Below are positions 14,487 through 62,289 of a stretch of 64,000 nt of DNA, one piece after another. Location of the stretch: the IMG/VR virus record IMGVR_UViG_3300042301_002170; one strand, written 5' to 3'. The position numbers and the translations under genes are program-made. Source of the stretch: a virus. Below the pieces are notes generated by a model. It ran no database searches. It was not told the origin of the DNA and was given only the letters and a program-made list of their open reading frames with translations. Numbering within the stretch: position 1 is the first letter of the stretch; every line of letters begins with the position of its first letter.

Positions 14487-14494
14487 TATTTATT
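14487..14494 (+). promoter_or_regulatory. Putative late promoter core TATTTATT
   Basis: Intergenic, before 14508. Confidence 0.5.
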
Positions 14495-14507
14495 ATAAAA
14501 TAAAACT

Positions 14508-14753: not shown

Positions 14754-14764
14754 ATAATACAAAA

Positions 14765-14971
14765 ATGCCAACAATAGAAGAATTATACAAAGCACAGCAA
14801 TCAGCATTAGGTGTTGATAAAATTGGATTTGCAGCAGGAGAATCTGCTAAAACACCATATACTACAGATGATTTAAAAAAAGCAGATGAGCAAATATTAA
14901 CTGCTGATAAGTTCAAAACAGGTAGAGGTGGTTCAATTAGTGAAAAAAAGTATTCTGATACTTTCAAATAA
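14765..14971 (+). CDS. Small hypothetical protein
   Basis: 68 aa ORF filling the gap between neighbours. Confidence 0.6.
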   Translation: MPTIEELYKAQQSALGVDKIGFAAGESAKTPYTTDDLKKADEQILTADKFKTGRGGSISEKKYSDTFK

Positions 14972-14973
14972 TA

Positions 14974-39543: not shown

Positions 39544-39546
39544 ATT

Positions 39547-42226: not shown

Positions 42227-42235
42227 ATTATATTT

Positions 42236-43423
42236 TTAAGGAATTATTTTTAAATCTCTAATTGTATCATTTACCAAATTATTTATATCATATGTAAAAA
42301 ATACTCTTTGATTTTCTTGTATTTTTTCTATATTATTTTTATACCATTCTTCTATATGTTCTTTACCCAAAGAATGTATTCGTTTTAATTCAATTAGTGT
42401 TTGATTTAATCTTTCTTCATTATTTGATATTTTATCAAATGAGTAATCTATTAAATCATTATACAATGTAAATCCATAATTTTTTAATTGAGTGTTTGTA
42501 AATACATCGCCTATTATTAAAAATGGGTGGCAATTTGCAAGTGGTTTAAAACTCTTTTCTGTTAAATTTAAACTTTCGGAATTGAAACCTGACTCTAATA
42601 TTATGCTAAAATTTGTTTTTGAATAAATTAATTTAGTAGATAGTGGTTGAACTTCAATGTTTGGATAATCCCAATCTATTATAGTATGTGGTAATTCATC
42701 AAATTTAGAATAGTATTTCCACAAATCTTTTAATTCTTCTTTTTTTGAAATTAATAAATTTAAATCAATATCATCATTTTTTATTAAACATGAAAATTTT
42801 GTGTCATTTATTAATCCTGTTTTTAACAACCACAACATAGCTTGAACTCTAAATGTTTTTGTAGAATTACGATTATATAATAAAAAAAATGAATCTTTTT
42901 CACCAGTAACATAATCATTTGGTCCACAAGTTATAGTTGTAATTTGCTCTGCTTCACTAAATACATTAGGTAATGTTAATTTCTTATAATGACTAGCCCA
43001 CCATCCTAACAAATATGGTTTTGCTATAACTAATATTTCATTTGTAAAATTTTTAAAATAATTATTAATTGTAATTAAAATAATTTGATTTGATTTTAAT
43101 TTGTAATTATTTTTTAATTGTATTAATTTTAAAACAAATTCTGTCATATTATTTCCCTCGTGAAAAGAAGAAAATACTAATTTTACGTTTGGTTTGTTTG
43201 ATACTAATTCAAATACATTTTTAAAATAATCAATATTTTCTTTCAATACTGTATATGTCATTTCTCTATTAAATGTAAAATTCCAAATTATGTGTTCGGT
43301 TTGATTTAATTCAAATGTATGAAATTTAAATCCATAATTTACATCTAAGTAATCAATTTTACAAGTACCATTACCATTTGGGACATTTTTAAAGTCAATA
43401 TTTTCATAATAAAACTTCATCAT
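42236..43423 (-). CDS. Putative GT-B glycosyltransferase, GT10-like TEK motif
   Basis: FLLYNR...R; FSIILES...LTEKSFKPLANCHPF. Confidence 0.5.
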   Translation of the reverse strand: MMKFYYENIDFKNVPNGNGTCKIDYLDVNYGFKFHTFELNQTEHIIWNFTFNREMTYTVLKENIDYFKNVFELVSNKPNVKLVFSSFHEGNNMTEFVLKLIQLKNNYKLKSNQIILITINNYFKNFTNEILVIAKPYLLGWWASHYKKLTLPNVFSEAEQITTITCGPNDYVTGEKDSFFLLYNRNSTKTFRVQAMLWLLKTGLINDTKFSCLIKNDDIDLNLLISKKEELKDLWKYYSKFDELPHTIIDWDYPNIEVQPLSTKLIYSKTNFSIILESGFNSESLNLTEKSFKPLANCHPFLIIGDVFTNTQLKNYGFTLYNDLIDYSFDKISNNEERLNQTLIELKRIHSLGKEHIEEWYKNNIEKIQENQRVFFTYDINNLVNDTIRDLKIIP

Positions 43424-44682
43424 ATTAAATTATAAAAATAGTTATCTTTTTCTTTTTTTAAATGATATGCACTAACGTATTCGTGGTTTTTAATAAATCT
43501 ATCTTTATTATTTACATAATAATTTTTTATTTCTTTTTTTAATTTTGATAATCTTACAATTTCATCCAAAACCATATGTAATCTTTTTTTAGCATCAATT
43601 TCTAAATCATAATCATGATTTATAATATCTTCAAATAAATCTAAATCAGGATGTTCTTTTTTTAATATTTCAACATGCCTATATGATGCTAAAAAAATTG
43701 GTAATTGATAAAAATAAAATGGTTTAAATGATTTTTCGGTCATATGAACATCTTTTATTTCATAGTGCGATTCAGTAACTATATTAATATAACTATTTTC
43801 GTATGATTTACATTCTATGTGTAAAAAATGTAAATAATTATCTGGGTTATCAAACCAATCTTTACCGGTTTCGTAAAAACTTAATTTTGGTTTAGAACAA
43901 ATTTCATAATAACTGTGTAGTAATTTTTTATCATTTGAACCGTCTATAAAAAATTGTTCTCCATATGTGGCTAATAGTGGATGATTCATTAATCCATATG
44001 TTAAAGACCAATCTATTAATCCAGAATCTAATAATTCATTATTTTTAAGTAATGTTAATATTGCAATTCTATGAGTCTTTGGTCTTCTATTTAAACATAG
44101 AAATAAAAACTCTTTATCTTCTACAAATGGAATTTTATATGGATTTTCAACTAATGAACTTGTACATAATTCTAATAAAAAATTTGATTTATATAAGTTA
44201 ATTGGTGTATTTTTTTTTATATCATTAGCTAATGAGTTATTATTTACAATATGAAATTGTTTTGGATTTAATTCTTTTTTATCAATTACTTTTGATAGAT
44301 TTTCTACATCAATACTAAGATTCATATAACTTTCGTGTTCACTTAAAAAAATTACTTTTAAATTTTTATTTCTAACACAATATTCAACTTCTTCCGATAG
44401 CTGCCATTCATTTTCATTGAACAAATTATTATATGAACAATAGTGTACAACGATATAATAATAATTTTCATTTGGGCTTATATCCGATAATTTACAATAA
44501 TTTTTTTCGTAATTATTATCCACCAAATCTTTACCTAAATTTGTAAAAAAATGCATAGGAGCTCCAACCTCAATATTGGGTATTGCTTCACAATTCAATT
44601 TTTCATTTAAAAAGATTAAATTAGGTATGGGTTTTCCATTATCATCCCACTTATCAAAAACTAAATTTAAAATACTACCCAT
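43420..44682 (-). CDS. Putative GT-B glycosyltransferase, GT10-like TEK motif
   Basis: FLCLNRRPKTHR; INIVTES...MTEKSFKPF; start likely the ATG at 44682 rather than 44706. Confidence 0.5.
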   Translation of the reverse strand: MGSILNLVFDKWDDNGKPIPNLIFLNEKLNCEAIPNIEVGAPMHFFTNLGKDLVDNNYEKNYCKLSDISPNENYYYIVVHYCSYNNLFNENEWQLSEEVEYCVRNKNLKVIFLSEHESYMNLSIDVENLSKVIDKKELNPKQFHIVNNNSLANDIKKNTPINLYKSNFLLELCTSSLVENPYKIPFVEDKEFLFLCLNRRPKTHRIAILTLLKNNELLDSGLIDWSLTYGLMNHPLLATYGEQFFIDGSNDKKLLHSYYEICSKPKLSFYETGKDWFDNPDNYLHFLHIECKSYENSYINIVTESHYEIKDVHMTEKSFKPFYFYQLPIFLASYRHVEILKKEHPDLDLFEDIINHDYDLEIDAKKRLHMVLDEIVRLSKLKKEIKNYYVNNKDRFIKNHEYVSAYHLKKEKDNYFYNLI

Positions 44683-45296
44683 TTTCCTGTTCCGTAATGT
44701 GGCCAAACTTTTTCATACTCATACCAAATAATATCATTTGGAATTTCACTTTTAACATTCCAAGTTTCAACCGTTGGTGTGTATGTTGAAACTCCATTAT
44801 CTTCTACAACAAATGTAATTGGTAAATCAAAGTTTTTTGCATATTTGTAATTTTCCATAAAAGCACCCGTCTCAAATGCCATATCTCCAACAAAACACCA
44901 TACTTTATCTTGAGAACCATTTCTTTTGTTTGCCATAGCAACTCCCATTGCAATTGAAATCGTTCCACCAACTATTGCTGAAGAATAAAATTTTTCATCT
45001 TTATTTACAATAGTGATACTTCTACCAGCGAGAATCTCATCTTCTAACCATTTTGAATCAACTCCTTTTACTAATGCGTGATAATGAGAACGCCAAGTAC
45101 TAAATACCCAATCGGTTGATTTAATTCTTTTTCCAATTTCAATTATTTGTTCTTCATTTCCACCACTTAAATGTATAGGACCTCGTATGTTACCACCCTC
45201 CCATGCATCTGCTATTCTTCTTTCAAAATCAATTAATCCTTCTTTATCCCATAACGATTCCTTAACGATTGGGAAATTTTCTATGTTTTTTATCAT
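44667..45296 (-). CDS. ThDP-dependent E1 alpha-like subunit
   Basis: GPIHLSGGNE, TWRSHYH, GDMAFETG...VEDN ThDP-binding motif; 209 aa. Confidence 0.9.
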   Translation of the reverse strand: MIKNIENFPIVKESLWDKEGLIDFERRIADAWEGGNIRGPIHLSGGNEEQIIEIGKRIKSTDWVFSTWRSHYHALVKGVDSKWLEDEILAGRSITIVNKDEKFYSSAIVGGTISIAMGVAMANKRNGSQDKVWCFVGDMAFETGAFMENYKYAKNFDLPITFVVEDNGVSTYTPTVETWNVKSEIPNDIIWYEYEKVWPHYGTGKWVVF

Positions 45297-45829
45297 CTGT
45301 CTCTTTTTTGTAAGATTGGGTTTTCAGTCGGCCATTCCATTTGAAACTCCGGGTCATTCCATTTAATTACACCTTGCTCATTTGCATCTACATATTGACC
45401 ATCATAAAATAAATTATAATGAAACATGCAATCAGTAAGTGCATAGTGGCCATTTGCAAACCCAGGAGGAACTAATACCTGTTGTCTGTTACGTTCAGAT
45501 ATGATGAATGATTCCCAATCCCCATAGGTAGGAGAATCTTCTCTTACATCCAAAACAATAAGGTATATATCACCAACCGCAGCCTGAACTAACTTCCAAG
45601 TTTTAGTATCATAGTGTAATCCTCTCAATACTCCTTTGTATGATTTTGAAAATCTACCATGTACCGAAACATATGGTGTAAGTTTTAACATTACAGGGTG
45701 TTCCTCTGAATGAAATGTTGTAAATATCTCACCTCTGTATTCTCTATAAATTGATGGTGTGTATATTTCTACTTCGTTTCCGAATTTGTTTGATGGCGTT
45801 ACATCAAACTGTTTCCAATTTGAACTCAT
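45293..45829 (-). CDS. rmlC: NDP-4-keto-6-deoxysugar 3,5-epimerase
   Basis: DYRG-like EYRGEIF, GVLRGLHY, DVREDSPTYG, PPGFANG, IKWNDP. Confidence 0.92.
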   Translation of the reverse strand: MSSNWKQFDVTPSNKFGNEVEIYTPSIYREYRGEIFTTFHSEEHPVMLKLTPYVSVHGRFSKSYKGVLRGLHYDTKTWKLVQAAVGDIYLIVLDVREDSPTYGDWESFIISERNRQQVLVPPGFANGHYALTDCMFHYNLFYDGQYVDANEQGVIKWNDPEFQMEWPTENPILQKRDR

Positions 45830-45879
45830 ATTAATTTTTTTACTTATTTTTTTATAAAAATTTAATTATTTCAAATACA

Positions 45880-46878
45880 TTATTTGGTTTGCCATGTATC
45901 CATAACACCACATATCTTATCATAATAACTTTTACTATTATGTCTATAATCATAGTATTTTGTAGTACCATTTGGTAGTTCTATACCATAAAAATCATCA
46001 TATTCTTCTAATAAAGTTTGACATTCTTCGTAGTTTGCAATTGGTATTCCACCAACATCGTTTATTTGTCCAATAGGACAATATCCAATTGCCAAATTTG
46101 GGTCATTCCAATCAAACCCCTTATCACTTATATATTTTTTAAATCCGTTATCCATATTAAATTCAAATTGTGGTCCAATATGAGCACTAAATTCTCCACT
46201 TATTAATCGGTGTTCGGATATTCCATCATCCGTTACATCTTCATCTTGGTCACAATATGCTTCATACCAAGTTTTACCTGTTTGTGCATAATGTAAATAA
46301 ATCATACCATTACCCACAGTTCTACTAAATTGTAATTTATCTTCCAAAGATATTTCTTGAAAACTCGGAGTTCCACAAATTGAATAATAAAAATAAAGAC
46401 TTTTACCAATACCTATATTAGTTCTTTTTATAGAATCATAATATGCTTCTAACGAATGGCAACTTAAATTTAATTTAGATATTGCAAATCTCTCCTCACC
46501 AGTTGCTCTTGCTAAAAAGCTAGATGGATTCCAAATTTGTCCTTGTAATGTTTCAAAATGTAAATGTAATTTATTTAATAACTCTCTATCAAATTCAGTT
46601 ACCAATGTTTCAAAAGGTTCATTTATTTTATCATAATCCGAATACCAATCGGCTGCTTTTAATAATCTAATACCCTCTACTAATTCTTCGCTAATCATTT
46701 GCGGAGTTCTATTTTTTGAAAACCCACCAACTAATGCAAAAGTTTTAACATATGCAATAAAATCGTTTTTTATAACATTTTCTAGCATTTTGTACCACTT
46801 TTCTTTAATCTTACTATCAAATAATGTAGTATTTACTTCTATAACATTATTATCAATATTTCTAAAATATAGTTTCAT
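45880..46878 (-). CDS. Hypothetical protein
   Basis: 332 aa; His motifs LNKLHLHFE and LNLSCHSLE, plus YAQTGKTW; no confident family. Confidence 0.6.
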   Translation of the reverse strand: MKLYFRNIDNNVIEVNTTLFDSKIKEKWYKMLENVIKNDFIAYVKTFALVGGFSKNRTPQMISEELVEGIRLLKAADWYSDYDKINEPFETLVTEFDRELLNKLHLHFETLQGQIWNPSSFLARATGEERFAISKLNLSCHSLEAYYDSIKRTNIGIGKSLYFYYSICGTPSFQEISLEDKLQFSRTVGNGMIYLHYAQTGKTWYEAYCDQDEDVTDDGISEHRLISGEFSAHIGPQFEFNMDNGFKKYISDKGFDWNDPNLAIGYCPIGQINDVGGIPIANYEECQTLLEEYDDFYGIELPNGTTKYYDYRHNSKSYYDKICGVMDTWQTK

Positions 46879-46911
46879 AATTAATTAATTTGTTTTTTTA
46901 TATTTTAATTA

Positions 46912-47883
46912 CTATGTATTATTTGCGTAACCTAATGGAAATCCGTTTCTAAATTCTGCTCCCATTCTTGGTACTATCATTTGATATGCTTCTATAAGTT
47001 GTTCAATACCCGCATCTAAACTCCAAGTTGGTTTCCAACCAGTTGCTTCGATTTTGGCATTAGAAACAATATAATCTCTTTTATCGGGGTCTTCGTAATA
47101 ATCATCATAAACTATTGCAAATTTTGGAACTTGTAATTTTATCTTTTCCAATAATTGTTGTTTATTTAAATTTGAATCACTTAAACCAACATTAAATACT
47201 TCACCTTTGTGTGTATCATAGTTGTGTAACATAAATACAAACGCATTAGCTACATCTTCTATATGAATAAAGTTTCTTTTAAAGTTTTTCTCAAATACTA
47301 CGATGTATTTATCAGTAATTGCTTTATAAGTAAAATCATTTACTAATAAATCTGTTCTCATTCTTGCAGATACTCCAAAGACGGTTGCTAATCTAAAAAT
47401 GATTGCATCTGTATGTTCTTTTAGAAGTCTTTCTGCTTCAACCTTAGTAGAACCATAAACCGATATTGGATTTAATGGAGATTCTTCAGTACATTCCGAT
47501 TGACCTTCCGCAATCCCATATCCACTATTTGTATTTGGATATAAAATCTTTTTACCTTTACCTTTTGTAAATTTTATTATGTTTTGAATTTGAATTAAAT
47601 TTAATTCTTTTGCCAATTGAGGTTCGGCATCGCAAGCAGGAAATCCTACAATGGCTGCTAATGGAATTATTACATCTGCCTGATTGCAAAGTTTTTCCAA
47701 TAGTTTTTCATTACGAACATCTCCGTATATAAACTTGAATTCAGAATGATGTGTGTATTGTAGTAAAGAAGTTTGATTGAATAGTAGTTTATCTAAAACT
47801 ATAACGGAATGCCCTTCTTGCAACATTCTACCAACTATAACAGAACCCAAATAACCGGCTCCACCTGTAATTAATATCTTCAT
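46912..47883 (-). CDS. NAD-dependent epimerase/dehydratase (extended SDR)
   Basis: ITGGAGYLGS, intact YGSTK, FRLATVFG. Confidence 0.9.
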   Translation of the reverse strand: MKILITGGAGYLGSVIVGRMLQEGHSVIVLDKLLFNQTSLLQYTHHSEFKFIYGDVRNEKLLEKLCNQADVIIPLAAIVGFPACDAEPQLAKELNLIQIQNIIKFTKGKGKKILYPNTNSGYGIAEGQSECTEESPLNPISVYGSTKVEAERLLKEHTDAIIFRLATVFGVSARMRTDLLVNDFTYKAITDKYIVVFEKNFKRNFIHIEDVANAFVFMLHNYDTHKGEVFNVGLSDSNLNKQQLLEKIKLQVPKFAIVYDDYYEDPDKRDYIVSNAKIEATGWKPTWSLDAGIEQLIEAYQMIVPRMGAEFRNGFPLGYANNT

Positions 47884-48100: not shown

Positions 48101-51100
48101 ATGAAATTAGAAGTAGATAAGCCGGAAGTAACGGGTTTAGTTGTAGTATATTCAGGACGTTTCCAACCATTTCACGCTGGACACTATGTATCCTATTTAA
48201 AACTTTGCAAAAAGTTTGGTAAGGAGAATGTATATATTGCAACATCTAATAGTACATCTGGTCCAAAATCTCCATTTGATTTTAAAGAAAAGAAAGAAAT
48301 TGCAACAAAAATGTTCAATGTTCCTTCTGATAGATTTATACAAGTTTCAAATCCATACGCACCCAAAGAAGTACTACAAGGTTTTGATGGAAAAACTACT
48401 GCTTATATTGCAGCAGTTGGTGAAAAGGATGAAAGTAGATTAAGTGGTAAATACTTTAAACCATACAAAGGTAAAACCGGATATGGATATGATGAAATAG
48501 GATACACATACGCAGTTCCTGCCGAATCAAACCCAATTAGTGGAACAGATGTTCGTAATTGGTTAGGTAGTGGAGATGATGAATCTAAAAAGAAAGGATT
48601 CTTAAAAGCATATCCAAAGTTCAATGCAGATATTTTTAAAATGATAACAAACAAATTAAACGAAGATGGTTTTCCAGGAGGAATTGGAACAGGATTGAAT
48701 CTTCCAGGTGGATATATTAATGGAGCACCAACGGGTTCTGCAAATGAATCAAATAATACAGAACCATCTTCTGCATTAAGACCTGAACCAAAACCAACAA
48801 GACATCAAATAGAACACCCATCAGACGAACCAAATTGGCATAAAAATGAAAGTTTATATGACCCAATTGGGCATATAATTGATAGAGTTCTTGCAGAACA
48901 AATGTTTAATGAATTTGTAGATTCGTATTTTACAGAAGCACCAAATCCTATAATGGATAAGGAGTTTGATTATACTGCAGCAGATGGAAGTAAGAAGAAA
49001 ATTAAAGTTAAGAGTGCATTAAGATTAGCAAAAGACCATCCTGCACACGTTCAAGCTTCCAAAATGGTTGGTAGTGATAAACCCAATGCAATGGCAAAAG
49101 GACCAACAGATGCACCTGCAAACGAACCAAATAAATTACCTGAACCTGGTAAAGCTGCAACTCAATCGGCAAAACCTTCTCAACCTGGACAACCGGTTAA
49201 GAAAGGACAAACTCAACAAGGTAAAGCAGATAAAGAAAAAGGAGAAGCACCTGCACCACAAGGAGCACAAGCTCCACCACCGGAACAAAAATTAAGTGGT
49301 GGTGAATTAAAAACGGCAGCTGAAAAAACACCAGAAGAAAAATCAAAAGAGAAAAAAGCTGAAAAACAAAATGCATTTAAATCATTTTTTAATGATGCAA
49401 GTGATTCTATTAAAAAAGAAGCATCGGCACTTTGGAAAGATTTTAATACAGAAGAACACCACGATGCACATGAAATGGCAAATCCTGAATCTGAAACTAG
49501 AAAAGGATTTATAGACCGTGCTGCAGATTTTATGGCAGAGTTTCCAGATAATATGGTAAAAGGTGCATATAATGTTGTAAAACACAAATATCACCAATTT
49601 AAAAATACTGCAAAAGGTGTAAAATCATTAGCAACTTCTTTATCACATGGTAAAGGGATTCAATTTGGCTATGAAAAAGGTAAAGATGGAAAGTGGGGAG
49701 TTAATAAAGATGAAGCAGAAAAACAGAAAAAAGCAGCTAAAGCAACGGCAATTGATGCAGCTAAAATAGCAGCAGCAGTTGTTACCGGTGGTGCAGTAAG
49801 TGGTGTAATGGGTCATTTAGCAGGAGGAGGAGCATTTGGTGGTTTAGGACAAGCTGCACTTAGTGGTGCGGGAGAAACACTTTCTCATGGAGTTACTGGA
49901 TTTGTAAGCCATATGGGAGTAGATTTTGCAAAACATTGCGGATTTGAAGCATTGGGATTAGGTGTAGGATTTGAGTTTGAGCAAGCTGAAAAAATAGCAG
50001 CAAGAGCAGGTGTTGCAACCGTAGGAGTTGTTCCACATATAGGTAAATTATTCCACAATGCAATGAGTTATGTTATGTCCGAAAATGCTACACCAGAAGA
50101 TGAAGAAAAGCAAAACGCAGATTTACTTATGAATTTGGTGGCAACTGTTTTGGAAAAAATGAAAGATTTCAAACCAACATCACAACAAATGTTTGAAACA
50201 ATGAAATCCTATTCAGAAGCTAAAAAAGAAAAGGAAGAAAAACAAAAAGGACTTGAAACGGCAAAATTATTAAAACCAATACAAGAACAAATTTCTCCAT
50301 TAAAAAGAGAAAATGTAAGTAATTTTGTAGAATACGCAACTAAAAGATTAAAATTAAAAGAACAACCAAAAGTAACATTAGTAGAAGACCCTGAGTTTTC
50401 AAGACAAAACCATTCATTGGGTGGATACAATGTTGATTCTAAAGAAATATTTGTAGCAACTGAAGGTAGATTAACTGCTGATATTTTAAGAACTATTGCA
50501 CATGAAATGGTTCATAGAAAGCAAGATGAAATGGGATTGATTGGTGATTCAGTAAAAGATGGAGCAACTGGTTCAACTGTTGAAAACAAAGCAAATTCAA
50601 TAGCAGCAATATTACTAAGAGAATATGGTAAGTTAAATAAAACAATTTACAATGAAGACATCAATATAGATGTTGATAAGGGTGATACTGTTTTAATGGG
50701 TAAATTCAAAAACAAAAAAGTTGTAGCAAAAGATTTTGGTACTGATGACCACGGAATGCCAACAATCAACGGTAAAGTTGCAACCACATTTAGAATACCA
50801 AGAGGAGAAAAGGCAAAACCAAATCCACAATCTGTATTTGATGAAGTTGGTTCAAATGATTGGCACTTCAAAGCAATTATGAAATTGTGGGATAAAGCAA
50901 ATTCGTATGGTAAAAAGAAAATTGGAGTAGCAGTTTGTAATGACCCAAATGCAAGTAAAAGAGAAATCGAAGCCCAATTGAGAGATACTGATTACGAAGA
51001 GGTAACTGATATGACCGATAAATTGGGATTAAAAGAATATATCGAAAAAAAAAAGTTAAATAAAATTGGTGAATCGGTTAATACAAAAAATCACAAACCT

Positions 51101-54100
51101 CACGGAACTCTTGACCATAATTTTAATCATCACCATAAATCATCTGCATACGCACCTGATTATGGGTATCCTGCTGAGTTAGATACAATAGATTTTGATG
51201 ATAAAAGAAAAAAACAACCAGGACATCAAGTAACCACAAAAGATACAGAGGATAGAGGATACGAACCTGTTAAAACTGAAAAATTAACACAATCTAATTT
51301 AGATAGTGTTGAAAGATATGCAGATAGAGAATTAGACCCTGCTGACATAGAGTTTAGTAATCACTTTTTTGATAGAGTTAATGATACTCGTAATGGTAAA
51401 GAAATATCCGAACCAGAACTAACTGGTTTCTTTAAGAGATTGGGAAGACACAAAAAACAATTCATAGATTTTTTAGAAAAGTACAATCAAATTGTAGTTA
51501 AAGACGATAGAAGTAATATCAATATTCCATTTGTAAAGATGGCAAATAAAGTTATTGCTAAAACTGTAATGAGAAAAGGTGATTTTCAAACCAATTCTCC
51601 TACAATCGTAAACGAAGAAACTCCATCAGAAATCATAAAAGATTTAGATAAGGTAAGACATGATTTGATTAAAAAAGTAGATGTTCTAATTGCTAAAAAG
51701 AAAAAACTTTACTCTAATGTTGATATTGAATCACCAATGAGTGCAGATGAAAAACAATTGGATAAAGATATACAATCTATATTTTCACAAATTCAACAAA
51801 TAATTCTTAAAAAAAGAACTTTAAAAGAATCTTTAAACGAAAATTCACAAGATAATATTGAAAAATTTGTTTTTTCGGTAGAAGATTTACCAAATGTAAA
51901 ATTTCATCATTTTAAAAATGGTTCATTATTTATTATAAATCATGAAAAATACCCATCGGAAGCGAGAAAAATTGCTAAATTAATTGAAAAATATAAAGTA
52001 AAACCTGAACTTATTCTTGATTATGATAAAAAATCAGGTGGTTGGATAAAGAAAGATGAAATTGGGTGGTATCTTCCTCATAATATATGGGAGCCACGTC
52101 AAAATAAATCTTTAAACGAAGTTAAATGGGAGGGTGATACATTCACTCGTTGTATGCAAGGTCAATTACCTCTTTCACTTAATATTGTTAAACAATTAGT
52201 TGAACCAATAAAAACAACTTCATTGCATGTAACTACAATTGAAAATTTATCAAAAGTTGCGGCATTAGAAGGAACTAAAAAATCAATTTCCACATTTAAT
52301 AAAATTGATAAATACTCAAAGATTGTACAAAATGGAAAAGGAGTAGATACCGATGGTGGTGTATTTGTATTAGTATCAGGAGTAGTATTGGCACAAAGTA
52401 TAATGGACTTATGGACTGCACCTGATAAGCAAGGTAGAAGATGGGTAAATCCTGGAACTGTAATAGATGGGTTAGGAAGAGAAACGGATATAGTTTTTAA
52501 TTTTGCACCACATTTAAAACCATTTAAGAAAAGATGGTTAGAAGACCCTTTAAACGAATTTACACCGGCTGAAAAGAATGAATTCATACGACTTTATTAT
52601 AAAGAGGCAGAGAAGTTTATGTTGAGTAAGAAAAAAGAGTTTCAAGATAAATATTTGAATTCAAACCAACTATACTATGAATCAGATTGGAATGAGGTTG
52701 TTCTTAATCAAATTAAAATTGAAAAGATTTTAGCTATTCCTAGTAATTGGGGTGGAGATGAAGCTGAAAATCAAAAAACATTAGAAAAACTTAAACAAAA
52801 ATATCCAAAAGTAGAAATTGGAAAAAATACTACTGACATTCAAAACTTTATTAAAAATAATGGTGGAAGTATCAGAGAATCTATAAACCAAAACAAATCT
52901 GTAATATCAGAAGGTGGTGCATACGGACACATGTCTCACCCGTTTGATGATATGAATTTAACATTTGGTGATTTAAAAAATATTATTACAGGAGCATTAA
53001 CTGGTAAATTAGAATTGACAAGAGAAAAAACCGATGGACAAGCTCTTGCAATTAGTTGGAAAAATGGTAGATTGATTGCAGCAAGAAACAAAGGTAATTT
53101 AGCTAACGCAGGAGCAAACGCAATGGGTATTGAAGATGTTGCATCAAAGTTTGCGGGTAGAGGTGGATTAACCGATGCTTACAACTTTGCAATGAAAGAT
53201 TTATCAGCAGCAATTAGTTCATTATCCGAACCACAGAGAAAGAAGATATTTGATGAGGGTAAGTGTTTTATGAACTTAGAAGTTATCTGGCCTACATCGG
53301 TAAATGTGATACCTTACGGACAACCCCTATTGGTATTCCACAATACAACTTGTTATGATGAAACTGGCAAAGCAGTTGGGGCAAATCAAGGGGCAGCAAC
53401 GATGTTGGCAGGAATGATTAAACAAGTTAATGGAGATGTTCAATCTAAATATACAATTCAGGGACCTCCTGTAACTAGATTACCAAATAATGAAGAATTG
53501 GGTTCTAAACAAACTAAATATTTAACACAATTACAAAAATTGCAATTTCAATTCCAATTAAGTAATAGAGATGGTGTTGCAGAATATCATCAGGCTTGGT
53601 GGGCAGACTTTATAGATAAGAGTAAAGTTAAATTACAGAAATTAGAAAGAGATGCGTTAATTAACAGATGGGCTTTCGGTGATAAATCATTCCGTTTAAA
53701 TACTATTACTGATAAAGATGCTCAAAAGTGGGCAATAGATAATGATAAAGTAAATGTTGCAAAACAACAAAAAGAAAACATTAGACCATTTGAGGAGATA
53801 TTTTTAGGAGTTGGAGCAGATGTATTATCATTTATGGATTCGGTATTAACTGCAAATCCAAATGCAGCAGTTGCAAGCATGAAACAAAGATTGAGGGATA
53901 CTGCTGATAAAGTAAGAGGTAGTGGGGATATAACTAAAATATCTAAATTAAAATCAGAATTGGCAAGATTACAATCAATTGGTGGATTAGATAAAATTGT
54001 TCCAAATGAGGGTATTGTATTTATTTATAAAGGAAACACTTATAAACTTACAGGAACTTTTGCACCATTAAATCAGATTTTAGGTATTTTTTACGAATAG
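48101..54100 (+). CDS. Multidomain polyprotein: HxGH nucleotidyltransferase, zincin, BECR-like, ART-like, ligase-like
   Basis: GRFQPFHAGH; HEMVH; SNHFFDR...KTVMRK; HVT/SIST/NEVVL; EKTDG, EGIVF, YKLTG. Confidence 0.8.
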   Translation: MKLEVDKPEVTGLVVVYSGRFQPFHAGHYVSYLKLCKKFGKENVYIATSNSTSGPKSPFDFKEKKEIATKMFNVPSDRFIQVSNPYAPKEVLQGFDGKTTAYIAAVGEKDESRLSGKYFKPYKGKTGYGYDEIGYTYAVPAESNPISGTDVRNWLGSGDDESKKKGFLKAYPKFNADIFKMITNKLNEDGFPGGIGTGLNLPGGYINGAPTGSANESNNTEPSSALRPEPKPTRHQIEHPSDEPNWHKNESLYDPIGHIIDRVLAEQMFNEFVDSYFTEAPNPIMDKEFDYTAADGSKKKIKVKSALRLAKDHPAHVQASKMVGSDKPNAMAKGPTDAPANEPNKLPEPGKAATQSAKPSQPGQPVKKGQTQQGKADKEKGEAPAPQGAQAPPPEQKLSGGELKTAAEKTPEEKSKEKKAEKQNAFKSFFNDASDSIKKEASALWKDFNTEEHHDAHEMANPESETRKGFIDRAADFMAEFPDNMVKGAYNVVKHKYHQFKNTAKGVKSLATSLSHGKGIQFGYEKGKDGKWGVNKDEAEKQKKAAKATAIDAAKIAAAVVTGGAVSGVMGHLAGGGAFGGLGQAALSGAGETLSHGVTGFVSHMGVDFAKHCGFEALGLGVGFEFEQAEKIAARAGVATVGVVPHIGKLFHNAMSYVMSENATPEDEEKQNADLLMNLVATVLEKMKDFKPTSQQMFETMKSYSEAKKEKEEKQKGLETAKLLKPIQEQISPLKRENVSNFVEYATKRLKLKEQPKVTLVEDPEFSRQNHSLGGYNVDSKEIFVATEGRLTADILRTIAHEMVHRKQDEMGLIGDSVKDGATGSTVENKANSIAAILLREYGKLNKTIYNEDINIDVDKGDTVLMGKFKNKKVVAKDFGTDDHGMPTINGKVATTFRIPRGEKAKPNPQSVFDEVGSNDWHFKAIMKLWDKANSYGKKKIGVAVCNDPNASKREIEAQLRDTDYEEVTDMTDKLGLKEYIEKKKLNKIGESVNTKNHKPHGTLDHNFNHHHKSSAYAPDYGYPAELDTIDFDDKRKKQPGHQVTTKDTEDRGYEPVKTEKLTQSNLDSVERYADRELDPADIEFSNHFFDRVNDTRNGKEISEPELTGFFKRLGRHKKQFIDFLEKYNQIVVKDDRSNINIPFVKMANKVIAKTVMRKGDFQTNSPTIVNEETPSEIIKDLDKVRHDLIKKVDVLIAKKKKLYSNVDIESPMSADEKQLDKDIQSIFSQIQQIILKKRTLKESLNENSQDNIEKFVFSVEDLPNVKFHHFKNGSLFIINHEKYPSEARKIAKLIEKYKVKPELILDYDKKSGGWIKKDEIGWYLPHNIWEPRQNKSLNEVKWEGDTFTRCMQGQLPLSLNIVKQLVEPIKTTSLHVTTIENLSKVAALEGTKKSISTFNKIDKYSKIVQNGKGVDTDGGVFVLVSGVVLAQSIMDLWTAPDKQGRRWVNPGTVIDGLGRETDIVFNFAPHLKPFKKRWLEDPLNEFTPAEKNEFIRLYYKEAEKFMLSKKKEFQDKYLNSNQLYYESDWNEVVLNQIKIEKILAIPSNWGGDEAENQKTLEKLKQKYPKVEIGKNTTDIQNFIKNNGGSIRESINQNKSVISEGGAYGHMSHPFDDMNLTFGDLKNIITGALTGKLELTREKTDGQALAISWKNGRLIAARNKGNLANAGANAMGIEDVASKFAGRGGLTDAYNFAMKDLSAAISSLSEPQRKKIFDEGKCFMNLEVIWPTSVNVIPYGQPLLVFHNTTCYDETGKAVGANQGAATMLAGMIKQVNGDVQSKYTIQGPPVTRLPNNEELGSKQTKYLTQLQKLQFQFQLSNRDGVAEYHQAWWADFIDKSKVKLQKLERDALINRWAFGDKSFRLNTITDKDAQKWAIDNDKVNVAKQQKENIRPFEEIFLGVGADVLSFMDSVLTANPNAAVASMKQRLRDTADKVRGSGDITKISKLKSELARLQSIGGLDKIVPNEGIVFIYKGNTYKLTGTFAPLNQILGIFYE

Positions 54101-54816: not shown

Positions 54817-55443
54817 ATGGAAAAGATATTCTCATTCACAAACATTTTAATAATTGGTTTAGTTGCATTTATTGTATTTAAACAATGTAGTAGTGAGGAT
54901 AAATCTATTGAAACCATTAATGTTGATGGTAAAAAATACGAATTGTTAAAACATAAAATAGATACTTTTGTTGTTGAGCATACTCAAATCAAATACAAAA
55001 AAGGACAAGATATTTATCACGAAACAATTGTAGAAAAAGAAAAAAGAGTAGAAGTACCAGTTTATGTAAAAGCAGATAGTGAAAGAATTGTAAAAGAATA
55101 TCACACAAAAGTTTTGTATAAAGATAGATTGGTATTAAACGATGGGTTGGGTATTGTAGAAATAACCGATACTATCAGTAGAAATAAAATTATCGGTAGA
55201 AAATGGAATGCTCAGATAAATGAGAGAACTATTACCGATACTAAAATTGTAAAAGAACTTCCAAAAAACCAAGTTTATATAGGAGTAAATGGTATAGTGG
55301 GTAACTCATCTGCATTGATAGGACCACAACTTACTCTTAAAACTAAAAAAGATAATTTATACGGAGCAAATTTACTTATAGATGGAAACGGAAATAAGTA
55401 TTTTGGTGTATCGGTTGGTTGGAAGATTAAACTCAAAAAATAA
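54817..55443 (+). CDS. Membrane-anchored protein, possible spanin-like lysis factor
   Basis: N-terminal hydrophobic helix, K/V/E-rich stalk, C-terminal alternating beta strands ending YFGVSVGWKIKLKK. Confidence 0.4.
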   Translation: MEKIFSFTNILIIGLVAFIVFKQCSSEDKSIETINVDGKKYELLKHKIDTFVVEHTQIKYKKGQDIYHETIVEKEKRVEVPVYVKADSERIVKEYHTKVLYKDRLVLNDGLGIVEITDTISRNKIIGRKWNAQINERTITDTKIVKELPKNQVYIGVNGIVGNSSALIGPQLTLKTKKDNLYGANLLIDGNGNKYFGVSVGWKIKLKK

Positions 55444-57050
55444 TGGCAGTTCAAGGGAAACCTAAGAAGTCTTTAAAAGAGATTATTGCAGAAGAATATC
55501 GTAAATGTGGGTTAGACCCAATTTACTTTATGAAAAAATATTGTGTTATACAACACCCAACAAGAGGTAAAATACCTTTTCACTTATATCCATTTCAGGA
55601 GAACTGTTTAACAGATTTTAAACAAGACCGTTTTAACATCATTCTTAAATCACGTCAGTTAGGTTTATCAACTCTTTCTGCGGGTTTTATTTTGTGGAAG
55701 ATGTTATTCAACGAAGATTTTAATGCATTGGTTATTGCAACTAAAGTAACAGTTGCAAAAAACTTAGTAGAGAAAGTAAGAGTAATGCACGATTTGTTAC
55801 CCGTTTGGTTAAGAGATGGTGGGAACTCTTCTGTTGAAGATAACAAACTATCACTTAAATTAAAGAACGGTTCTCAGGTCAAAGCAATAGCATCCTCACC
55901 CGATGCAGGACGTTCGGAAGCTCTATCCCTATTAGTAGTGGATGAGGCAGCATTCATTAGAGATATTGATGAGATTTGGTTATCGGCACAATCAACTCTA
56001 TCAACGGGTGGTAGTGCAATTGTATTATCTACTCCGAATGGTGTGGGTAACTGGTTTCATAAAATGTGGGTAGAAGGAGAAAGTGGTGCAAACGGATTCA
56101 ATCCTATAAATCTTCATTGGACAGTTCATCCAGAAAGAAATCAAACTTGGAGAGATGAACAAACTCGTATTTTGGGAGCAAAAGGAGCAGCACAAGAATG
56201 TGATTGCGACTTTGTTGGTTCCGGAGATACAGTAATAGACCCTGAGTTATTAACTTGGTATAAGAACACTTATGTAATGGAACCTGTTGAAAAAGCAGGA
56301 TTTGATAGAAACCTATGGAAATGGGAATATCCAAATTACAACAAACAATATATGGTTGTAGCTGACGTTGCAAGAGGAGATGCAGCCGATTATTCAACTG
56401 CACAAGTTTTAGATATTGAAGATTGTTCGCAAGTTGCTGAATATAGAGGAATGATTGATACCAAAGATTTTGGAAACTTTCTTACTGCATTAGCAACAGA
56501 ATACAACAATGCATTATTAGTAGTAGAAAACTCAAACGTAGGTTGGGCATGTATTCAACAAATTATAGATAGAGGATACCAAAATCTATTTTATATGAGT
56601 AACGACTTAAAATATATTGATGTTGAAAGACAAATGAGTAATAAGTTTTACAGAGATGAAAAACAAATGGTTGCAGGTTTCTCTACAACATCTAAAACAA
56701 GACCTTTGATTATTTCAGCATTGGATACATATATGAATGAAAAAGATATTCTTATTCGTAGTGGTAGATTAATAGATGAAATGTTTACATTTATTTGGCA
56801 TGGTGGTAGAGCAGAAGCAATGAAAGGATATAATGACGACTTAATTATGGCATTGGCAATTGGATTGTGGGTTCGTAATACTGCACTTCGTTTAAGACAA
56901 GAAGGAATTGATTTAACTAAAAATATGTTGAACTCATCGCACATAGCTAAATACGATGGATTTGTATCTACGGGTCATTTAACTAGAAATCCATATGAAA
57001 TGGAAGTGGGTAATAAAGAAATAGAAAGTTTAACTTGGTTACTTCAATAA
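55443..57050 (+). CDS. gp17: Terminase large subunit
   Basis: KSRQLGLST, LVVDEAAF, STPNG, ADVARG, DDLIMA. Confidence 0.96.
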   Translation: MAVQGKPKKSLKEIIAEEYRKCGLDPIYFMKKYCVIQHPTRGKIPFHLYPFQENCLTDFKQDRFNIILKSRQLGLSTLSAGFILWKMLFNEDFNALVIATKVTVAKNLVEKVRVMHDLLPVWLRDGGNSSVEDNKLSLKLKNGSQVKAIASSPDAGRSEALSLLVVDEAAFIRDIDEIWLSAQSTLSTGGSAIVLSTPNGVGNWFHKMWVEGESGANGFNPINLHWTVHPERNQTWRDEQTRILGAKGAAQECDCDFVGSGDTVIDPELLTWYKNTYVMEPVEKAGFDRNLWKWEYPNYNKQYMVVADVARGDAADYSTAQVLDIEDCSQVAEYRGMIDTKDFGNFLTALATEYNNALLVVENSNVGWACIQQIIDRGYQNLFYMSNDLKYIDVERQMSNKFYRDEKQMVAGFSTTSKTRPLIISALDTYMNEKDILIRSGRLIDEMFTFIWHGGRAEAMKGYNDDLIMALAIGLWVRNTALRLRQEGIDLTKNMLNSSHIAKYDGFVSTGHLTRNPYEMEVGNKEIESLTWLLQ

Positions 57051-57090: not shown

Positions 57091-57588
57091 ATGAATTTAA
57101 CTAAAATCATAAAAGAATTAGAAAACCCTTGCTGGAAAGGGTACGAAATGGTTGGAATGAAAGACAAAGATGGAAGAGAAGTTCCTAATTGTGTTCCTGT
57201 GAAAGAAGATATTGATAGTGATGATGATGTAAACTATGGTTTAGTTGAACCAGAAGAATATGATGTTGAGGATGAAGATATGGAGGATTTTATTGCTTTT
57301 ATGAGAGGATATGATAAAAACCTAAACGAAGGTTGTCAATGTTTAAGAGAAGCAGAATATCAAGGTAGAGAAGTGAAATTGGGTAAACCAATGCAAGGTG
57401 ATGTTAAAAAGTTCAAAGTATATGTTAAGAATCCACAAGGAAATGTTGTTAAAGTAAACTTTGGACAAAAAGGAATGAAAATTAGAAAATCAAATCCTGC
57501 TGCGAGAAAATCTTTTAGAGCAAGAATGAATTGTGACCAACCAGGACCAAGACACAAAGCAAACTATTGGAGTTGCAGAAAGTGGTAA
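57091..57588 (+). CDS. Putative internal head protein with two short conserved modules
   Basis: CWKGY...VPNCVP and EAEYQGREV...VNFG...RKSFRARMNC...YWSC modules; several xxE sites. Confidence 0.6.
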   Translation: MNLTKIIKELENPCWKGYEMVGMKDKDGREVPNCVPVKEDIDSDDDVNYGLVEPEEYDVEDEDMEDFIAFMRGYDKNLNEGCQCLREAEYQGREVKLGKPMQGDVKKFKVYVKNPQGNVVKVNFGQKGMKIRKSNPAARKSFRARMNCDQPGPRHKANYWSCRKW

Positions 57589-61088: not shown

Positions 61089-61699
61089 TGAAATTAAATC
61101 AATTAAAGGAGCTTGTTAGACAAGTTGTAAGAGAGGAGCAAGATTACCAACAACTTTTCAAACATATATTGGATAAATCGGGTAAATCAATTCCATCTAT
61201 GTCTGACGATGACAAGAAGAAATTCTTTAATGCAGTAGATACGGCATACAAAGCAAAATCAGAAGGTAGATTAAGAGGATATAATGAAAACTTACCTGGA
61301 AATCAAGAGAAGTTAGATACTGATAAAGATGGTGAAATTGAAGCAAGTGATTTAGCAAAATTAAGAGCTAGTAAAAACGAATCATTAAAAGAAGAAAATC
61401 CTGGTCTATGGGCAAATATAAGAGCTAAGCAAGATAGAGGTGAAAAACCGGCACATGGTAATTCGGATGCACATAAAGACGCAGTTAAAGCAGCTAAATC
61501 AATAAATAAAGGAGAATCGGTAAACGAAGAAGAAATTAAATGGAATGCAGTTGAAAATGCAATCATTAACTTTCTAAAAATGAATACAAAGATTTTAGAT
61601 AAAAGAGTTAAGGATAGAGATACTGATGGTGTTAAAGGTGGATTACAATCAATAATTGATGGTTTAACTAACGCACAACGTAGTTTAAAATTAAAGTAA
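61088..61699 (+). CDS. Putative internal head protein with EF-hand-like loop
   Basis: DTDKDGEIEASD; N-terminal MKLNQLKELVRQVVRE. Confidence 0.55.
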   Translation: MKLNQLKELVRQVVREEQDYQQLFKHILDKSGKSIPSMSDDDKKKFFNAVDTAYKAKSEGRLRGYNENLPGNQEKLDTDKDGEIEASDLAKLRASKNESLKEENPGLWANIRAKQDRGEKPAHGNSDAHKDAVKAAKSINKGESVNEEEIKWNAVENAIINFLKMNTKILDKRVKDRDTDGVKGGLQSIIDGLTNAQRSLKLK

Positions 61700-62289
61700 T
61701 GAGCAAAGGATTATTGATAGAAACTCATTTGTTTGAAGCAAAGATACAAGAAGAATCTAACGGTACTTTACTTGTTAAAGGTGTTTTGCAAAGAGCGGGT
61801 GCTGAAAATCAAAATGGTAGAAGATACCCTAAAGAAATTCTTGAAAGAGAATGTAAAAAATATCAACAACTTATTAATGAAAGAAGAGCATTGGGTGAAT
61901 TAGACCATCCAGATTCTCCAGTTATTAACTTAAAGAATGTATCACATAACGTTAGAGAAATCTATTGGGAAGGTGATGATGTATGTGGTACGGTTGAAAT
62001 CCTTTCTACACCATCAGGAAACATTCTCAAAGAATTATTAAAGAACAACATCCGTTTAGGTATTTCATCAAGAGGATTGGGTTCAGTAAAAGAATTAAGA
62101 GATGGAACTGTAATGGTTCAAGAAGATTTTGAGTTAGTAGGTTGGGATTTTGTTTCAAACCCATCTACGCATGGAGCATTTATGGCACCTGTAAACGAAT
62201 CTAAACAATGGAAGAAGATTGCAGATGAGTGTGGTAAATGGTGTAAAGCACAAGATTTAATGAGAGAAATATTAATAGAATTAAACTAA
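61699..62289 (+). CDS. gp21: Prohead core protease
   Basis: NQNGRRYP, ALGELDHP, VSH, LGISSRGLGS, WDFVSNPS. Confidence 0.95.
   Translation: MSKGLLIETHLFEAKIQEESNGTLLVKGVLQRAGAENQNGRRYPKEILERECKKYQQLINERRALGELDHPDSPVINLKNVSHNVREIYWEGDDVCGTVEILSTPSGNILKELLKNNIRLGISSRGLGSVKELRDGTVMVQEDFELVGWDFVSNPSTHGAFMAPVNESKQWKKIADECGKWCKAQDLMREILIELN

Follow-up and report, generated by a model that had tools for sequence, protein, structure and literature searches.

The question raised by this locus is what an ORF of 1999 aa beside head genes encodes, and in what form its product is used. The ORF (P0001) occupies 48101..54100 on the + strand of the window, the whole 64-kb stretch of DNA that was analysed, and has an ATG start and 1999 aa plus stop; position and length are those of the first-pass annotation. 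More than 1000 relatives, metagenomic and 1100–2100 aa in length, were found, and shorter forms of the family (640–1000 aa) also exist. For example, in the Microcystis phage Mel-JY01 both end domains are joined as a compact 639-aa form, in which IIAE↓GGLGGHM is kept before the ligase domain (↓ marks a joint or the end of a leader). Comparison across relatives separated a conserved frame, formed by residues 1–990 and 1605–1999, from presence/absence modules confined to residues ~990–1604, which are inserted, lost and reordered. The order within the frame is an NMNAT-like domain, spacers, a mini-zincin, a small invariant module, a small helical module and, last, an RNA-ligase-like domain. Judging from sequence, we consider it fairly probable that P0001 is a polyvalent polyprotein belonging to the head/packaging gene module and composed of about a dozen modules, enzymes as well as linkers. 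P0001 is best explained as belonging to an aquatic myophage lineage whose heads mature in the manner of T4.

The genomic setting agrees with the proposal of a head-gene neighbourhood, since TerL, the portal and a prohead protease are encoded downstream of P0001. In related loci, TerL was found downstream of the P0001-family gene in 73 of 73 cases, the portal in 44 of 44 and the S77 protease in 28 of 30. In the window, a T4 gp21-type prohead serine protease (Peptidase_S77; Pfam PF03420, E=7.6e-30; PHROG 207, E=3e-54) is encoded at 61699..62289 (+), 7.6 kb downstream, and we propose it as the processing enzyme of P0001. Its own N-terminus reads MSKGLLIE↓, and T4 gp21 has LIE-9 (PMC9026906). Similar leaders, of 8–10 residues and ending in LKE, IKE or LIE, are carried by its neighbours: a small head-module protein at 57091..57588 (+; MNLTKIIKE↓, with an internal NLNE↓G site), the head-module proteins at 61088 (MKLNQLKE↓) and 62550 (MIRLKDLLKE↓), and an acidic scaffold-like protein at 63582 (MANSKLLKE↓). 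Head-module neighbours also hold ESLKE↓ and ESVNE↓ linkers, which resemble those of P0001. The late-type promoter that had been assigned to the gene gained no support: a single TATAAATC with one mismatch lies ~35 nt upstream of P0001, and the AT-rich window shows no enrichment of TATAAATA (17 found vs 23 expected).

The modules, all on the + strand, begin with residues 1–188 (48101..48664, ending in KLNE-188), for which motifs and profile searches support a predicted NadM-type NMN adenylyltransferase-like domain of the HxGH nucleotidyltransferase class, as had been recognised from the sequence. It contains FHAGH (24–28) and ISGTDVR (146–152) and matches PHROG 395 (E=3e-9); Pfam CTP_transf_like scores 19.7 bits on P0001, just under its cut-off of 21, and the family is matched by 22 of 25 relatives at E≤0.001. 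A profile of the P0001 family matches the solved NMNATs 2qjt (E=3e-5) and 1f9a (E=5e-4) in the PDB. Residues 189–661 (48665..50083, ending in VMSE-661) begin with an acidic spacer that runs to YFTE-279 and continue with a low-complexity linker rich in Pro, Gln and Lys, a helical part, and a hydrophobic stretch rich in Gly and Ala (~553–655); the linker and the hydrophobic segment had both been pointed out before and are visible in the sequence. The entire region is missing from the 890-aa members of the family, such as P0350, and insertion/deletion breakpoints lie at residues 186 and 214. E279 is Glu in 99% of relatives (flank identity 0.55) and E661 in 96% (0.41), the latter in contexts as variable as VFAE, LIGE, LLE, IAE and LME.

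A short acidic helical spacer (residues 662–729; 50084..50287) ends in PIQE-729, where Glu and a hydrophobic P3 are both present in 100% of relatives despite a flank identity of 0.38. It is followed by a minimal zincin (residues 730–852; 50288..50656, ending in IYNE-852), with HEMVH at 801–805 followed by a Glu in TVENKAN at 829; relatives hardly vary at H, E, H and E. The AlphaFold model of this module has a pLDDT of 77–92, and its Foldseek matches include abylysin, selecase and jannalysin (probability 0.69–0.98, TMt 0.42–0.59) as well as IrrE/PprI and SPRTN, while no Pfam peptidase model, MPTase-PolyVal included, matched it. The fold thus bears out the zincin read from the HEMVH motif, and the modelled structure supports a predicted metallopeptidase of the mini-zincin type. 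The domain is retained even in the 890-aa minimal forms. E852, which is Glu in 100% of relatives, is an insertion hot spot. The next module (residues 853–915; 50657..50845; DINIDVDKGD...MPTINGK..TFR, ending in VFDE-915) is small and almost invariant, with invariant alignment columns D131–R172, and is possibly a binding or targeting module. Its description as a small beta domain stands as far as the high conservation goes, but the structure does not follow with confidence: strands are predicted, the AlphaFold pLDDT is only 31–48, and a Pfam search gave no match.

Residues 916–1060 (50846..51280) comprise a small helical module (916–979, ending in GLKE; pLDDT 75–88 for 916–981) and a disordered His/Asp-rich insert (980–1060; pLDDT <35 for ~987–1056) that is absent from most relatives. 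The optional module that follows (residues 1061–1172; 51281..51616; NHFFDR motif, ending in IVNE-1172) may be a RegB-like endoribonuclease of the BECR type. Pfam REGB_T4 matches it with E=0.0011 and 19.4 bits, below the cut-off of 27, so that the earlier BECR-like assignment is kept here as a sub-threshold family match. In a pairwise comparison with T4 RegB (E=0.027), SQHLLDR aligns with SNHFFDR and the second His is out of register; the structure model is of low confidence and helical. A parallel weak REGB_T4 match was obtained for gp190 of the Flavobacterium phage immuto. RegB-like relatives in the phages Melnitz and phiM12 lie near primase genes and have no clean leaders, and the RegB-like module is therefore not always a head protein. 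E1172 is Glu in 96% of relatives and coincides with the largest breakpoint cluster (158 events).

Coverage by relatives and the junctions define two further optional small modules in residues 1173–1340 (51617..52120). One (1173–1247) is helical and ends in TLKE/SLNE, corresponding to the junction KRTLKESLNE↓ of relatives; the other (1248–1340) is rare and ends in SLNE-1340 (98% Glu). The last optional segment (residues 1341–1604; 52121..52912) is a 253-aa domain followed by an 11-residue spacer from SIRE-1593 to VISE-1604. The C-terminal residues 1605–1999 (52913..54097) start with the invariant GGAYGHM and form a candidate RNA-ligase-like covalent nucleotidyltransferase domain, supported by motifs and weak fold matches, in line with the ligase-like C-terminus suggested before. 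Motif I would be EKTDG (1642–1646), with K1643 as its lysine; it is kept in at least 90% of relatives, and E, K and G are invariant among 25. In the weak fold matches, K1643 falls on the catalytic Lys of four solved RNA ligases. Further candidate motifs are NLEVIW, LLVFHN, NEGIVF (motif IV) and YKLTG (motif V), with a large helical insert between, and no match of this region to any ligase family was seen at the sequence level by phmmer, profile search or Pfam. A link to a cytidylyltransferase-like protein of the cyanophage S-PM2 was rejected, as it consisted of one weak fold match (E=0.49) with no sequence link, and a literature search found no paper on it.

The first-pass annotation had seen these modules as parted by [ILVF]-x-E sites, an idea that was upheld for the placement of the motif at junctions and not for its overall frequency. 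All 13 tetrapeptides that it quoted are present in P0001, two of which, VMSE (M at P3) and IYNE (Y at P3), fall outside its own class. [ILVF]xE occurs 33 times against 33.05 expected from composition, and [IL]xE 20 times against 18.1, so a global enrichment was rejected; because the motif is short and this common, any single site could be a coincidence. Placement is another matter. Among the 12 major insertion/deletion breakpoints of P0001, seven have [LIVFMY]xE within 4 residues, compared with 2.2 expected (p=0.002); an unweighted test over all small clusters is marginal (25% vs 14%, p=0.045), and we report the major clusters because many of the small ones are alignment noise. The domain swapping suspected at xxE boundaries is also visible among the homologs, where modules come and go at such sites: of the unique junction flanks in relatives, 151 of 278 (54%) have [LIVFMY]xE within ±4 residues against a background of 18%, a count in which the flanks are not phylogenetically independent and related sequences enter more than once.

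Conservation singles out ten of these sites. E188 (100%), E279, E661, E729, E852, E915, E1172, E1340, E1593 and E1604 are Glu in at least 94% of relatives, and their P3 is hydrophobic in at least 95% (87% at E915), in flanks that are mostly poorly conserved. Low-confidence linkers hold 7 of the 9 conserved sites covered by two structure models; the linker 1589–1617, for instance, has a pLDDT <50, falling to ~21–24 at its centre. Examples of junctions in relatives are KKKLSE↓KLSQ, IVNE↓ITQG, KESLNE↓GGAY and IYNE↓ATD...LKE↓DIN. The rule has its exceptions: conservation of the Glu is no more than moderate at VLAE-266 and GLKE-979 (0.78 and 0.77), E1247 falls within a predicted long helix, and some junctions lack the Glu or a hydrophobic P3 (ANE-215, KTE-1060 and, in relatives, ILLQC↓GGAY). 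Taken together, the comparisons support module joints that end in [LIVFM]-x-E, which matches the L/I-x-E specificity of the S77/gp21 family; T4 gp21 cuts after L/I-x-E (PMC9026906).

A second line of evidence comes from the domain 1341–1593, which forms 372 representative clusters at 50% identity, mostly proteins of 250–330 aa, with H1376, KSISTF and DWNE as invariant features. Searches of Pfam, PHROG and the PDB with this domain gave no match. An ART-like domain at this place found no support either: not from Foldseek or VIA run on a model of two domains, nor from the ESM Atlas, from Pfam and PHROGs, or from a profile search of the PDB. Among its free-standing relatives, 87 of 128 (68%) have [LIVFMY]xE ending at residues 8–11, compared with 8.5% expected, with the leader consensus M-[IK]-x-[LF]-K-[DQ]-[LFY]-[LI]-x-E. 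The most conserved leader positions, 4, 7, 8 and 10, are those important in T4 IPIII (PMC9026906), and one leader, MKTYKQFIAE, can be set beside MKTYQEFIAE of T4 IPII/IPIII. Moreover, the leader ends at the exact position of the polyprotein joint, as seen in P0123 (...LLNE↓VKWEDD) and P0001 (...SLNE↓VKWEGD). These free-standing relatives are thus probably internal-protein-like genes with capsid-targeting leaders. When the phage collection was searched by tblastn with the window segment and with P0184, no isolate with the 1341–1593 domain was found, and P0184 had no locus in IMG/VR. In the Flavobacterium phage immuto (vB_FspM_immuto), genes upstream of TerL carry such leaders: gp190 is a leader-tagged RegB-like protein, and gp191 contains the same LKESLNE↓ linker as P0001, at LKESLNE-532. 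Among gp190–194 of this phage, predicted leaders end in IKE-12, IVE-9 and VIE-10. P0001 itself starts with MKLE, with K at P3 in place of a hydrophobic residue, and has no canonical 10-residue leader; among 165 N-termini of the family, 134 carry a [LIVFM]xE whose Glu is residue 5 or 6. As this leader is absent or of 5–6 residues, shorter than the T4 capsid-targeting sequence, it leaves the uptake of a 220-kDa precursor into the core unexplained.

Because the joints resemble head-maturation protease sites, P0001 is probably cut within the capsid, and its pieces are probably injected together with the DNA; on balance we favour reading it as a polyvalent polyprotein of internal-protein modules that the prohead protease would cut. 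Made late in infection, the protein would be taken into the prohead core, where the S77 protease would cut after the conserved Glu residues to give roughly ten pieces of 7–45 kDa. The pieces would remain with the DNA and pass into the next host when it is injected, like the T4 internal proteins and Alt. What they bring into the cell within the first seconds of an infection could comprise an NAD-forming enzyme, a putative endonuclease acting on mRNA, an RNA-ligase-like enzyme, a metallopeptidase and other modules. Prohead uptake, cleavage, injection and every enzymatic activity we infer only; a literature search turned up neither virion proteomics nor cleavage data, be it for this phage or for its relatives. 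The prohead-cut head polyprotein of the first-pass annotation thus gains strong comparative support from the joints, the synteny of the protease and the leaders, while its ART domain and its late promoter find no support. The chances seem to us evenly balanced for a broader account, in which a widespread aquatic T4-like phage clade fused internal-protein genes into one head polyprotein, its sites would be both cut sites and joints for swapping modules between phages, each capsid would receive an exchangeable enzyme set in fixed ratio to be delivered at injection, and the domain 1341–1593 would represent a family of internal proteins with leaders that is large and as yet unnamed.

The same gene could instead encode a multi-enzyme made late that stays in the cytoplasm and never enters the capsid, engaged in RNA repair and NAD salvage or in catalysing morphogenesis, with the xxE linkers as flexible joints or recombination points only. 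The compact 639-aa enzyme that the two end domains form in Mel-JY01 is compatible with this, as are the motif count at chance level and the missing canonical 10-residue leader. T4 RNA ligase 1 (gp63) doubles as a tail-fibre attachment factor, and BFVD structure matches include T4-type RNA ligase/tail-fibre attachment proteins. We consider a purely cytoplasmic role unlikely, as it leaves unexplained why Glu and a hydrophobic P3 are so constant in otherwise free linkers, why free-standing relatives have T4-like leaders ending at the same joint, and why IIAE↓GGLGGHM precedes the ligase domain of Mel-JY01.

Processing might also be the work of the protein's own zincin, in the capsid or after injection, with the prohead protease uninvolved. 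The confident model, the nearly invariant HExxH...E and the persistence of this domain in minimal forms all speak for it. Zincin peptidases are the hub around which polyvalent proteins are built, and it has been suggested that they set the remaining domains free, according to the sections of the polyvalent-protein study drawn on here (PMC5512222). That the motif is the known S77/gp21 specificity (PMC9026906), that xxE also ends the leaders of separate, zincin-free head proteins (including the scaffold-like protein and the protease) that are classical S77 substrates, and that minimal zincins are not known to favour cutting after Glu with a hydrophobic P3, makes self-processing as the sole route quite unlikely to us; the two kinds of processing are compatible and not mutually exclusive. 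Finally, as with the N4 virion RNA polymerase, a giant virion protein could go into the capsid and out again largely in one piece, losing only a short N-terminal leader, while its hydrophobic Gly-rich stretch helps protein or DNA to cross the membrane. Such a segment of ~100 residues does lie in the conserved half, relatives have a conserved 5–6-residue N-terminal xxE leader, and the same sections describe N4 vRNAP as containing a zincin domain and packaged unprocessed (PMC5512222). Intact ejection nonetheless appears very improbable, for the 890-aa forms do without the hydrophobic region, and such a model gives no role to the conserved internal xxE sites or the swapping there.

If cleavage by the prohead protease is correct, the T4 internal-protein paradigm would extend from single leader-tagged proteins to a polyprotein of many modules, and release of the domains in one class of polyvalent proteins, for which earlier work assumed embedded peptidases, would fall to the prohead protease. 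It would also provide a rule for finding capsid-delivered effectors in uncultured phages ([LIVFM]-x-E joints plus the 10-residue leader M-x-x-[LF]-K-x-[LFY]-[LI]-x-E), point to a candidate early counter-defence set (NAD-forming enzyme, RNA-ligase-like enzyme and nuclease) present before phage gene expression, and suggest natural sites for loading foreign cargo into non-model phage capsids.

To call this an undescribed system, as had been done, was an overstatement, because polyvalent, capsid-packaged zincin-hub proteins (PMC5512222, in the sections drawn on here) and the leader-tagged internal proteins of T4 have both been described; T4 packages leader-tagged proteins (PMC9026906, PMC3012670). 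As with T4 IPI, IPII, IPIII and Alt, the head module encodes an S77/gp21-type protease and the motif is [LI]-x-E; leaders of 8–10 residues stand on the neighbours of P0001 and on the free-standing relatives of its module, and the cargo is diverse, fast-evolving and presumed to target the host once injected. T4, however, uses one gene and one leader per cargo, whereas P0001 strings together up to about a dozen modules with internal sites, and its N-terminus is not a canonical leader.

The same sections of the polyvalent-protein study (Iyer, Burroughs, Anantharaman and Aravind 2017; PMC5512222) show several likenesses. Such proteins, found in phages and conjugative elements, carry 2–15 unrelated domains that are mostly catalytic, a range into which P0001 falls with its NMNAT-like, zincin, RegB-like, ligase-like and other modules; many unrelated catalytic domains are extensively shuffled within one polypeptide, a zincin recurs, BECR-type RNases and nucleotidyltransferases may occur, and the gene lies among late/structural genes of portal-terminase phages. 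The proposed logic, delivery with the DNA and release of domains by proteolysis, is also shared. There, embedded peptidases were put forward as the means of release, whereas the joints of P0001 carry the motif of a separate prohead protease, and the repertoire described in those sections was not seen to include NMNAT-like or RNA-ligase-like end domains. Cleavage of many head-internal proteins after Glu by a diverged gp21 relative, at a three-residue motif and often at several sites, is known from phiKZ, 201phi2-1 and SPN3US (gp175/gp245) (PMC9026906, PMC10052503). In these phages, unlike here, cleavage follows S/A-x-E; it serves mostly to remove and fragment N-terminal propeptides and is not described as separating independent enzymes.

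The two end domains have counterparts of their own. Like the NadM-type phage NMNATs, the first has HxGH and ISxT motifs and profile matches to solved NMNATs; an example of such phage enzymes is the NadV/NatV pair for NAD salvage in KVP40. The last resembles the T4 RNA ligases Rnl1 and Rnl2 in its KxDG motif I and, by weak matches, in a candidate adenylyltransferase-like fold with the Lys in register, and differs from them in a long helical insert before motifs IV and V. Unlike either the phage NMNATs or Rnl1 and Rnl2, the two domains here form the first and last parts of one head-module protein.

P0001, the 1999-aa polyprotein, is encoded by a single ORF with an ATG start at 48101–54100 on the + strand (ORF listing and translation), in an AT-rich piece of phage genome (about 29% GC). 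It is followed on the same strand by two small genes and then by those for TerL (55443–57050), a small protein, the portal (57648–59399), four unnamed proteins, a Peptidase_S77 prohead protease (61699–62289; PF03420, E=7.6e-30; PHROG 207, E=3e-54) and an acidic scaffold-like protein. The gene therefore adjoins the head genes, as the first-pass annotation had stated, and the phage itself encodes a protease of the T4 gp21 type. Upstream and divergent, on the − strand, is a sugar-nucleotide operon (38995–47883) with an RmlC-like 3,5-epimerase and NDP-sugar epimerases; a second giant ORF (6348–11264, 1638 aa) had no PHROG match. The late-type promoter proposed for the polyprotein gene comes down to one copy of TATAAATC, some 35 nt upstream, and we gave it no weight; exact TATAAATA is less common in the window than in shuffled sequence (17 vs 23). 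On the + strand, TATTTATA occurs at 6328, 11283, 19748, 48090, 57059 and 59418, about 5–35 nt before start codons, that of the polyprotein gene included, and may be part of a promoter or leader element common to several + strand genes of the phage.

More than 1000 proteins of 1100–2100 aa match P0001. When it was mapped by BLAST against 120 relatives, residues 1 to about 990 and about 1600–1999 were common to nearly all, while residues 990–1600 comprised blocks that some relatives have and others lack (about 989–1060, 1061–1172, 1173–1247, 1248–1340 and 1341–1593). Microcystis phage Mel-JY01 has a 639-aa form with the two end domains alone, its gene also lying a few genes upstream of TerL, and forms of 890 aa, whose contigs reach 243 kb, have the order NMNAT, zincin, small module, helical module, ligase. 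The position of the zincin is shifted in some relatives. Among 80 IMG/VR loci, counted where the flank was long enough, TerL was downstream in 73/73, the portal in 44/44 and S77 in 28/30. In two of the related loci (L048, about 10990–13800; L050, about 12410–15220), the TerL match is confined to the C-terminal half and the block is about 2 kb longer, which suggests an intein, intron or other insertion in TerL.

The motif [ILVF]xE as such is not enriched in P0001 (33 observed, 33.05 expected from composition). All the tetrapeptides quoted in the first-pass annotation are present, with VMSE and IYNE falling outside its own residue class. What stands is their placement. BLAST segment ends cluster at 852, 914–916, 978–993, 1059–1061, 1170–1174, 1247, 1336–1340 and 1593–1599, and [LIVFMY]xE lies within 4 residues of 7 of the 12 major indel breakpoints (2.2 expected, p=0.002). 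Across relatives, it occurs within ±4 residues in 54% of 278 unique junction flanks vs 18% of random positions, with offsets peaking at 0 and +1, any p-value here being nominal because the flanks are related sequences. Recurrent endings (a slash marks the predicted cut) are KKKLSE/KLSQ, SPTIVNE/ITQG, KRTLKESLNE/A, KESLNE/GGAYGHM, IYNE/ATD...NHLKE/DINV and NLKE/AQAV. In a 121-sequence alignment, E188, E279, E661, E729, E852, E915, E1172, E1340, E1593 and E1604 are Glu in 94–100%, with a hydrophobic P3 in 87–100%, against a mean of 64% for all Glu residues and in flanks often merely 38–56% identical; at site 661 the motif alone is kept (VFAE, LIGE, GLLE, GIAE, GLME). The pooled logo has L/I/F/V/M at P3 in 91% and Asn at P2 in 41%. 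In two AlphaFold models, 7/9 conserved sites fall in low-confidence linkers; E1247 is within a predicted helix. These sites are nearly the same as those listed in the first-pass annotation.

T4 gp21 cleaves after L/I-x-E, and T4 internal proteins are targeted via their first 10 residues, where positions 4 and 7 matter for targeting and positions 8 and 10 for processing (PMC9026906; PMC3012670). Four independent comparative lines appear to connect the P0001 joints to such a system: its neighbours, the Flavobacterium phage vB_FspM_immuto, free-standing relatives and the family N-termini. Small head-module proteins of the window begin with MNLTKIIKE/ (57091–57588, + strand), MKLNQLKE/ (61088–61699) and MIRLKDLLKE/ (62550–62984), and the acidic scaffold-like protein (63582–63998) with MANSKLLKE/; these 8–10-residue leaders ending in LKE or IKE are candidate capsid-targeting sequences of the clade. 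The S77 protease begins MSKGLLIE/, for which T4 gp21 has LIE-9, and neighbouring head proteins have linkers (NLNE/G, ESLKE/, ESVNE/) similar to LKESLNE/ of P0001. Upstream of TerL in immuto, gp190 (DUF5661 plus RegB-like) has the leader MKKSQLRQIIKE/, gp191 has MKKLIRIVE/ and internal MNESVNE/ and LKESLNE/, and gp192 has MSVVDKIVIE/.

An exhaustive HMMER search with residues 1341–1593 gave 372 representative clusters; most are free-standing proteins of 250–330 aa with the domain starting at residues 10–35. The motif ends at residues 8–11 in 87 of 128 free-standing members (expectation 8.5%), and exactly at residue 10 in 57, with the consensus M-[IK]-x-[LF]-K-[DQ]-[LFY]-[LI]-x-E; one member has MKTYKQFIAE, where IPII and IPIII in the T4 record have MKTYQEFIAE. 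The free-standing P0123 reads MIRLGKLLNE/VKWEDD where P0001 reads NKSLNE/VKWEGD, so the leader cut site coincides with the polyprotein joint. Beside sheath-like genes on three contigs (L083, 2049–3328; L084, 166–1445; L085, 4338–5545), a leader-tagged gene stands in tandem with another small gene downstream whose leader matches its own; the leaders (MIKLKDLLNE and MIKLKDLLTE) are near-identical and the bodies unrelated, an arrangement resembling polymorphic internal-protein loci in T-even phages. A standalone zincin of Synechococcus phage B23 begins MNYKQFLRE/. In the polyprotein family itself, [LIVFM]xE ends at residue 5–6 in 134 of 165 N-termini (e.g., MNSLLE, MNIKE, MNLKE), a leader shorter than the T4 targeting sequence, and MKLE of P0001 is outside this pattern.

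The N-terminal HxGH nucleotidyltransferase matches PHROG 'cytidyltransferase' (E=3e-9); it is slightly below the cut-off for Pfam CTP_transf_like, which 22/25 relatives match (E≤0.001), and the family profile matches solved NadM-type NMNATs (E=3e-5). The model of the HEMVH zincin (730–852; pLDDT 77–92) gave fold matches to minigluzincin, IrrE and SPRTN. For the BECR-like domain, a RegB match was present at 1061–1172, scoring 19.4 bits where the Pfam cut-off is 27, and is similarly weak in gp190; with SNHFFDR aligning with SQHLLDR of T4 RegB, the resemblance is suggestive only. The ART-like assignment was not upheld, as fold and family searches with 1341–1593 gave no match; its invariant positions are H, S-x-S, D, G, W and E. 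Module 853–915 is nearly invariant among relatives but gave a low-confidence model (pLDDT 31–48). In the relatives P0042, P0045 and P0063, an intein-like insert at the C-terminal end starts immediately behind the catalytic Lys in motif I of the ligase (LELTREK, then CIAGDTIIH...; K1643 in P0001, window 53027–53029), and the downstream ORF P0298 resumes with ...DILVHN, then TDGQALAISW; as the protein is called as two ORFs, the insert may be either a split intein or one carrying a homing-endonuclease gene. Inteins usually occupy active sites, which argues that the motif I site is functional. In immuto, gp182 (2722–5445, 907 aa), annotated as NMNAT and upstream of TerL, weakly matches Pol-beta NTase, CTP_transf_like and zincin (M91-like) in that order, and may be a distant polyvalent cousin.

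From these comparisons, we consider it rather likely that P0001 is a head-module polyvalent polyprotein: the S77 protease would cut it into modules, which would be packaged in the head and then injected. The embedded zincin could instead do the cutting; this counts against the reading, as do the short family leader, the joints that have no motif (ANE-215 and KTE-1060, and ILLQC/GGAY in relatives) and the RegB-like genes of Melnitz and phiM12, which are near primase genes and have no clean leaders. The four comparative lines point to S77-type processing; overall, the first-pass observation is borne out in part, and its interpretation likewise finds partial support.

P0001 fits the definition of polyvalent proteins (PMC5512222), sharing with them many unrelated domains, a zincin hub, a late phage context and shuffling. 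Our limited literature search found no description of the family or its arrangement. PhiKZ-like phages are known to cut single head proteins at several places, mainly breaking up propeptides (PMC10052503). In its proposed way of working, P0001 is like the T4 internal-protein system. Unlike both polyvalent proteins and T4 internal proteins, however, its joints bear the motif of a prohead protease that has its own gene, and domains of leader-tagged internal proteins are concatenated in one reading frame.
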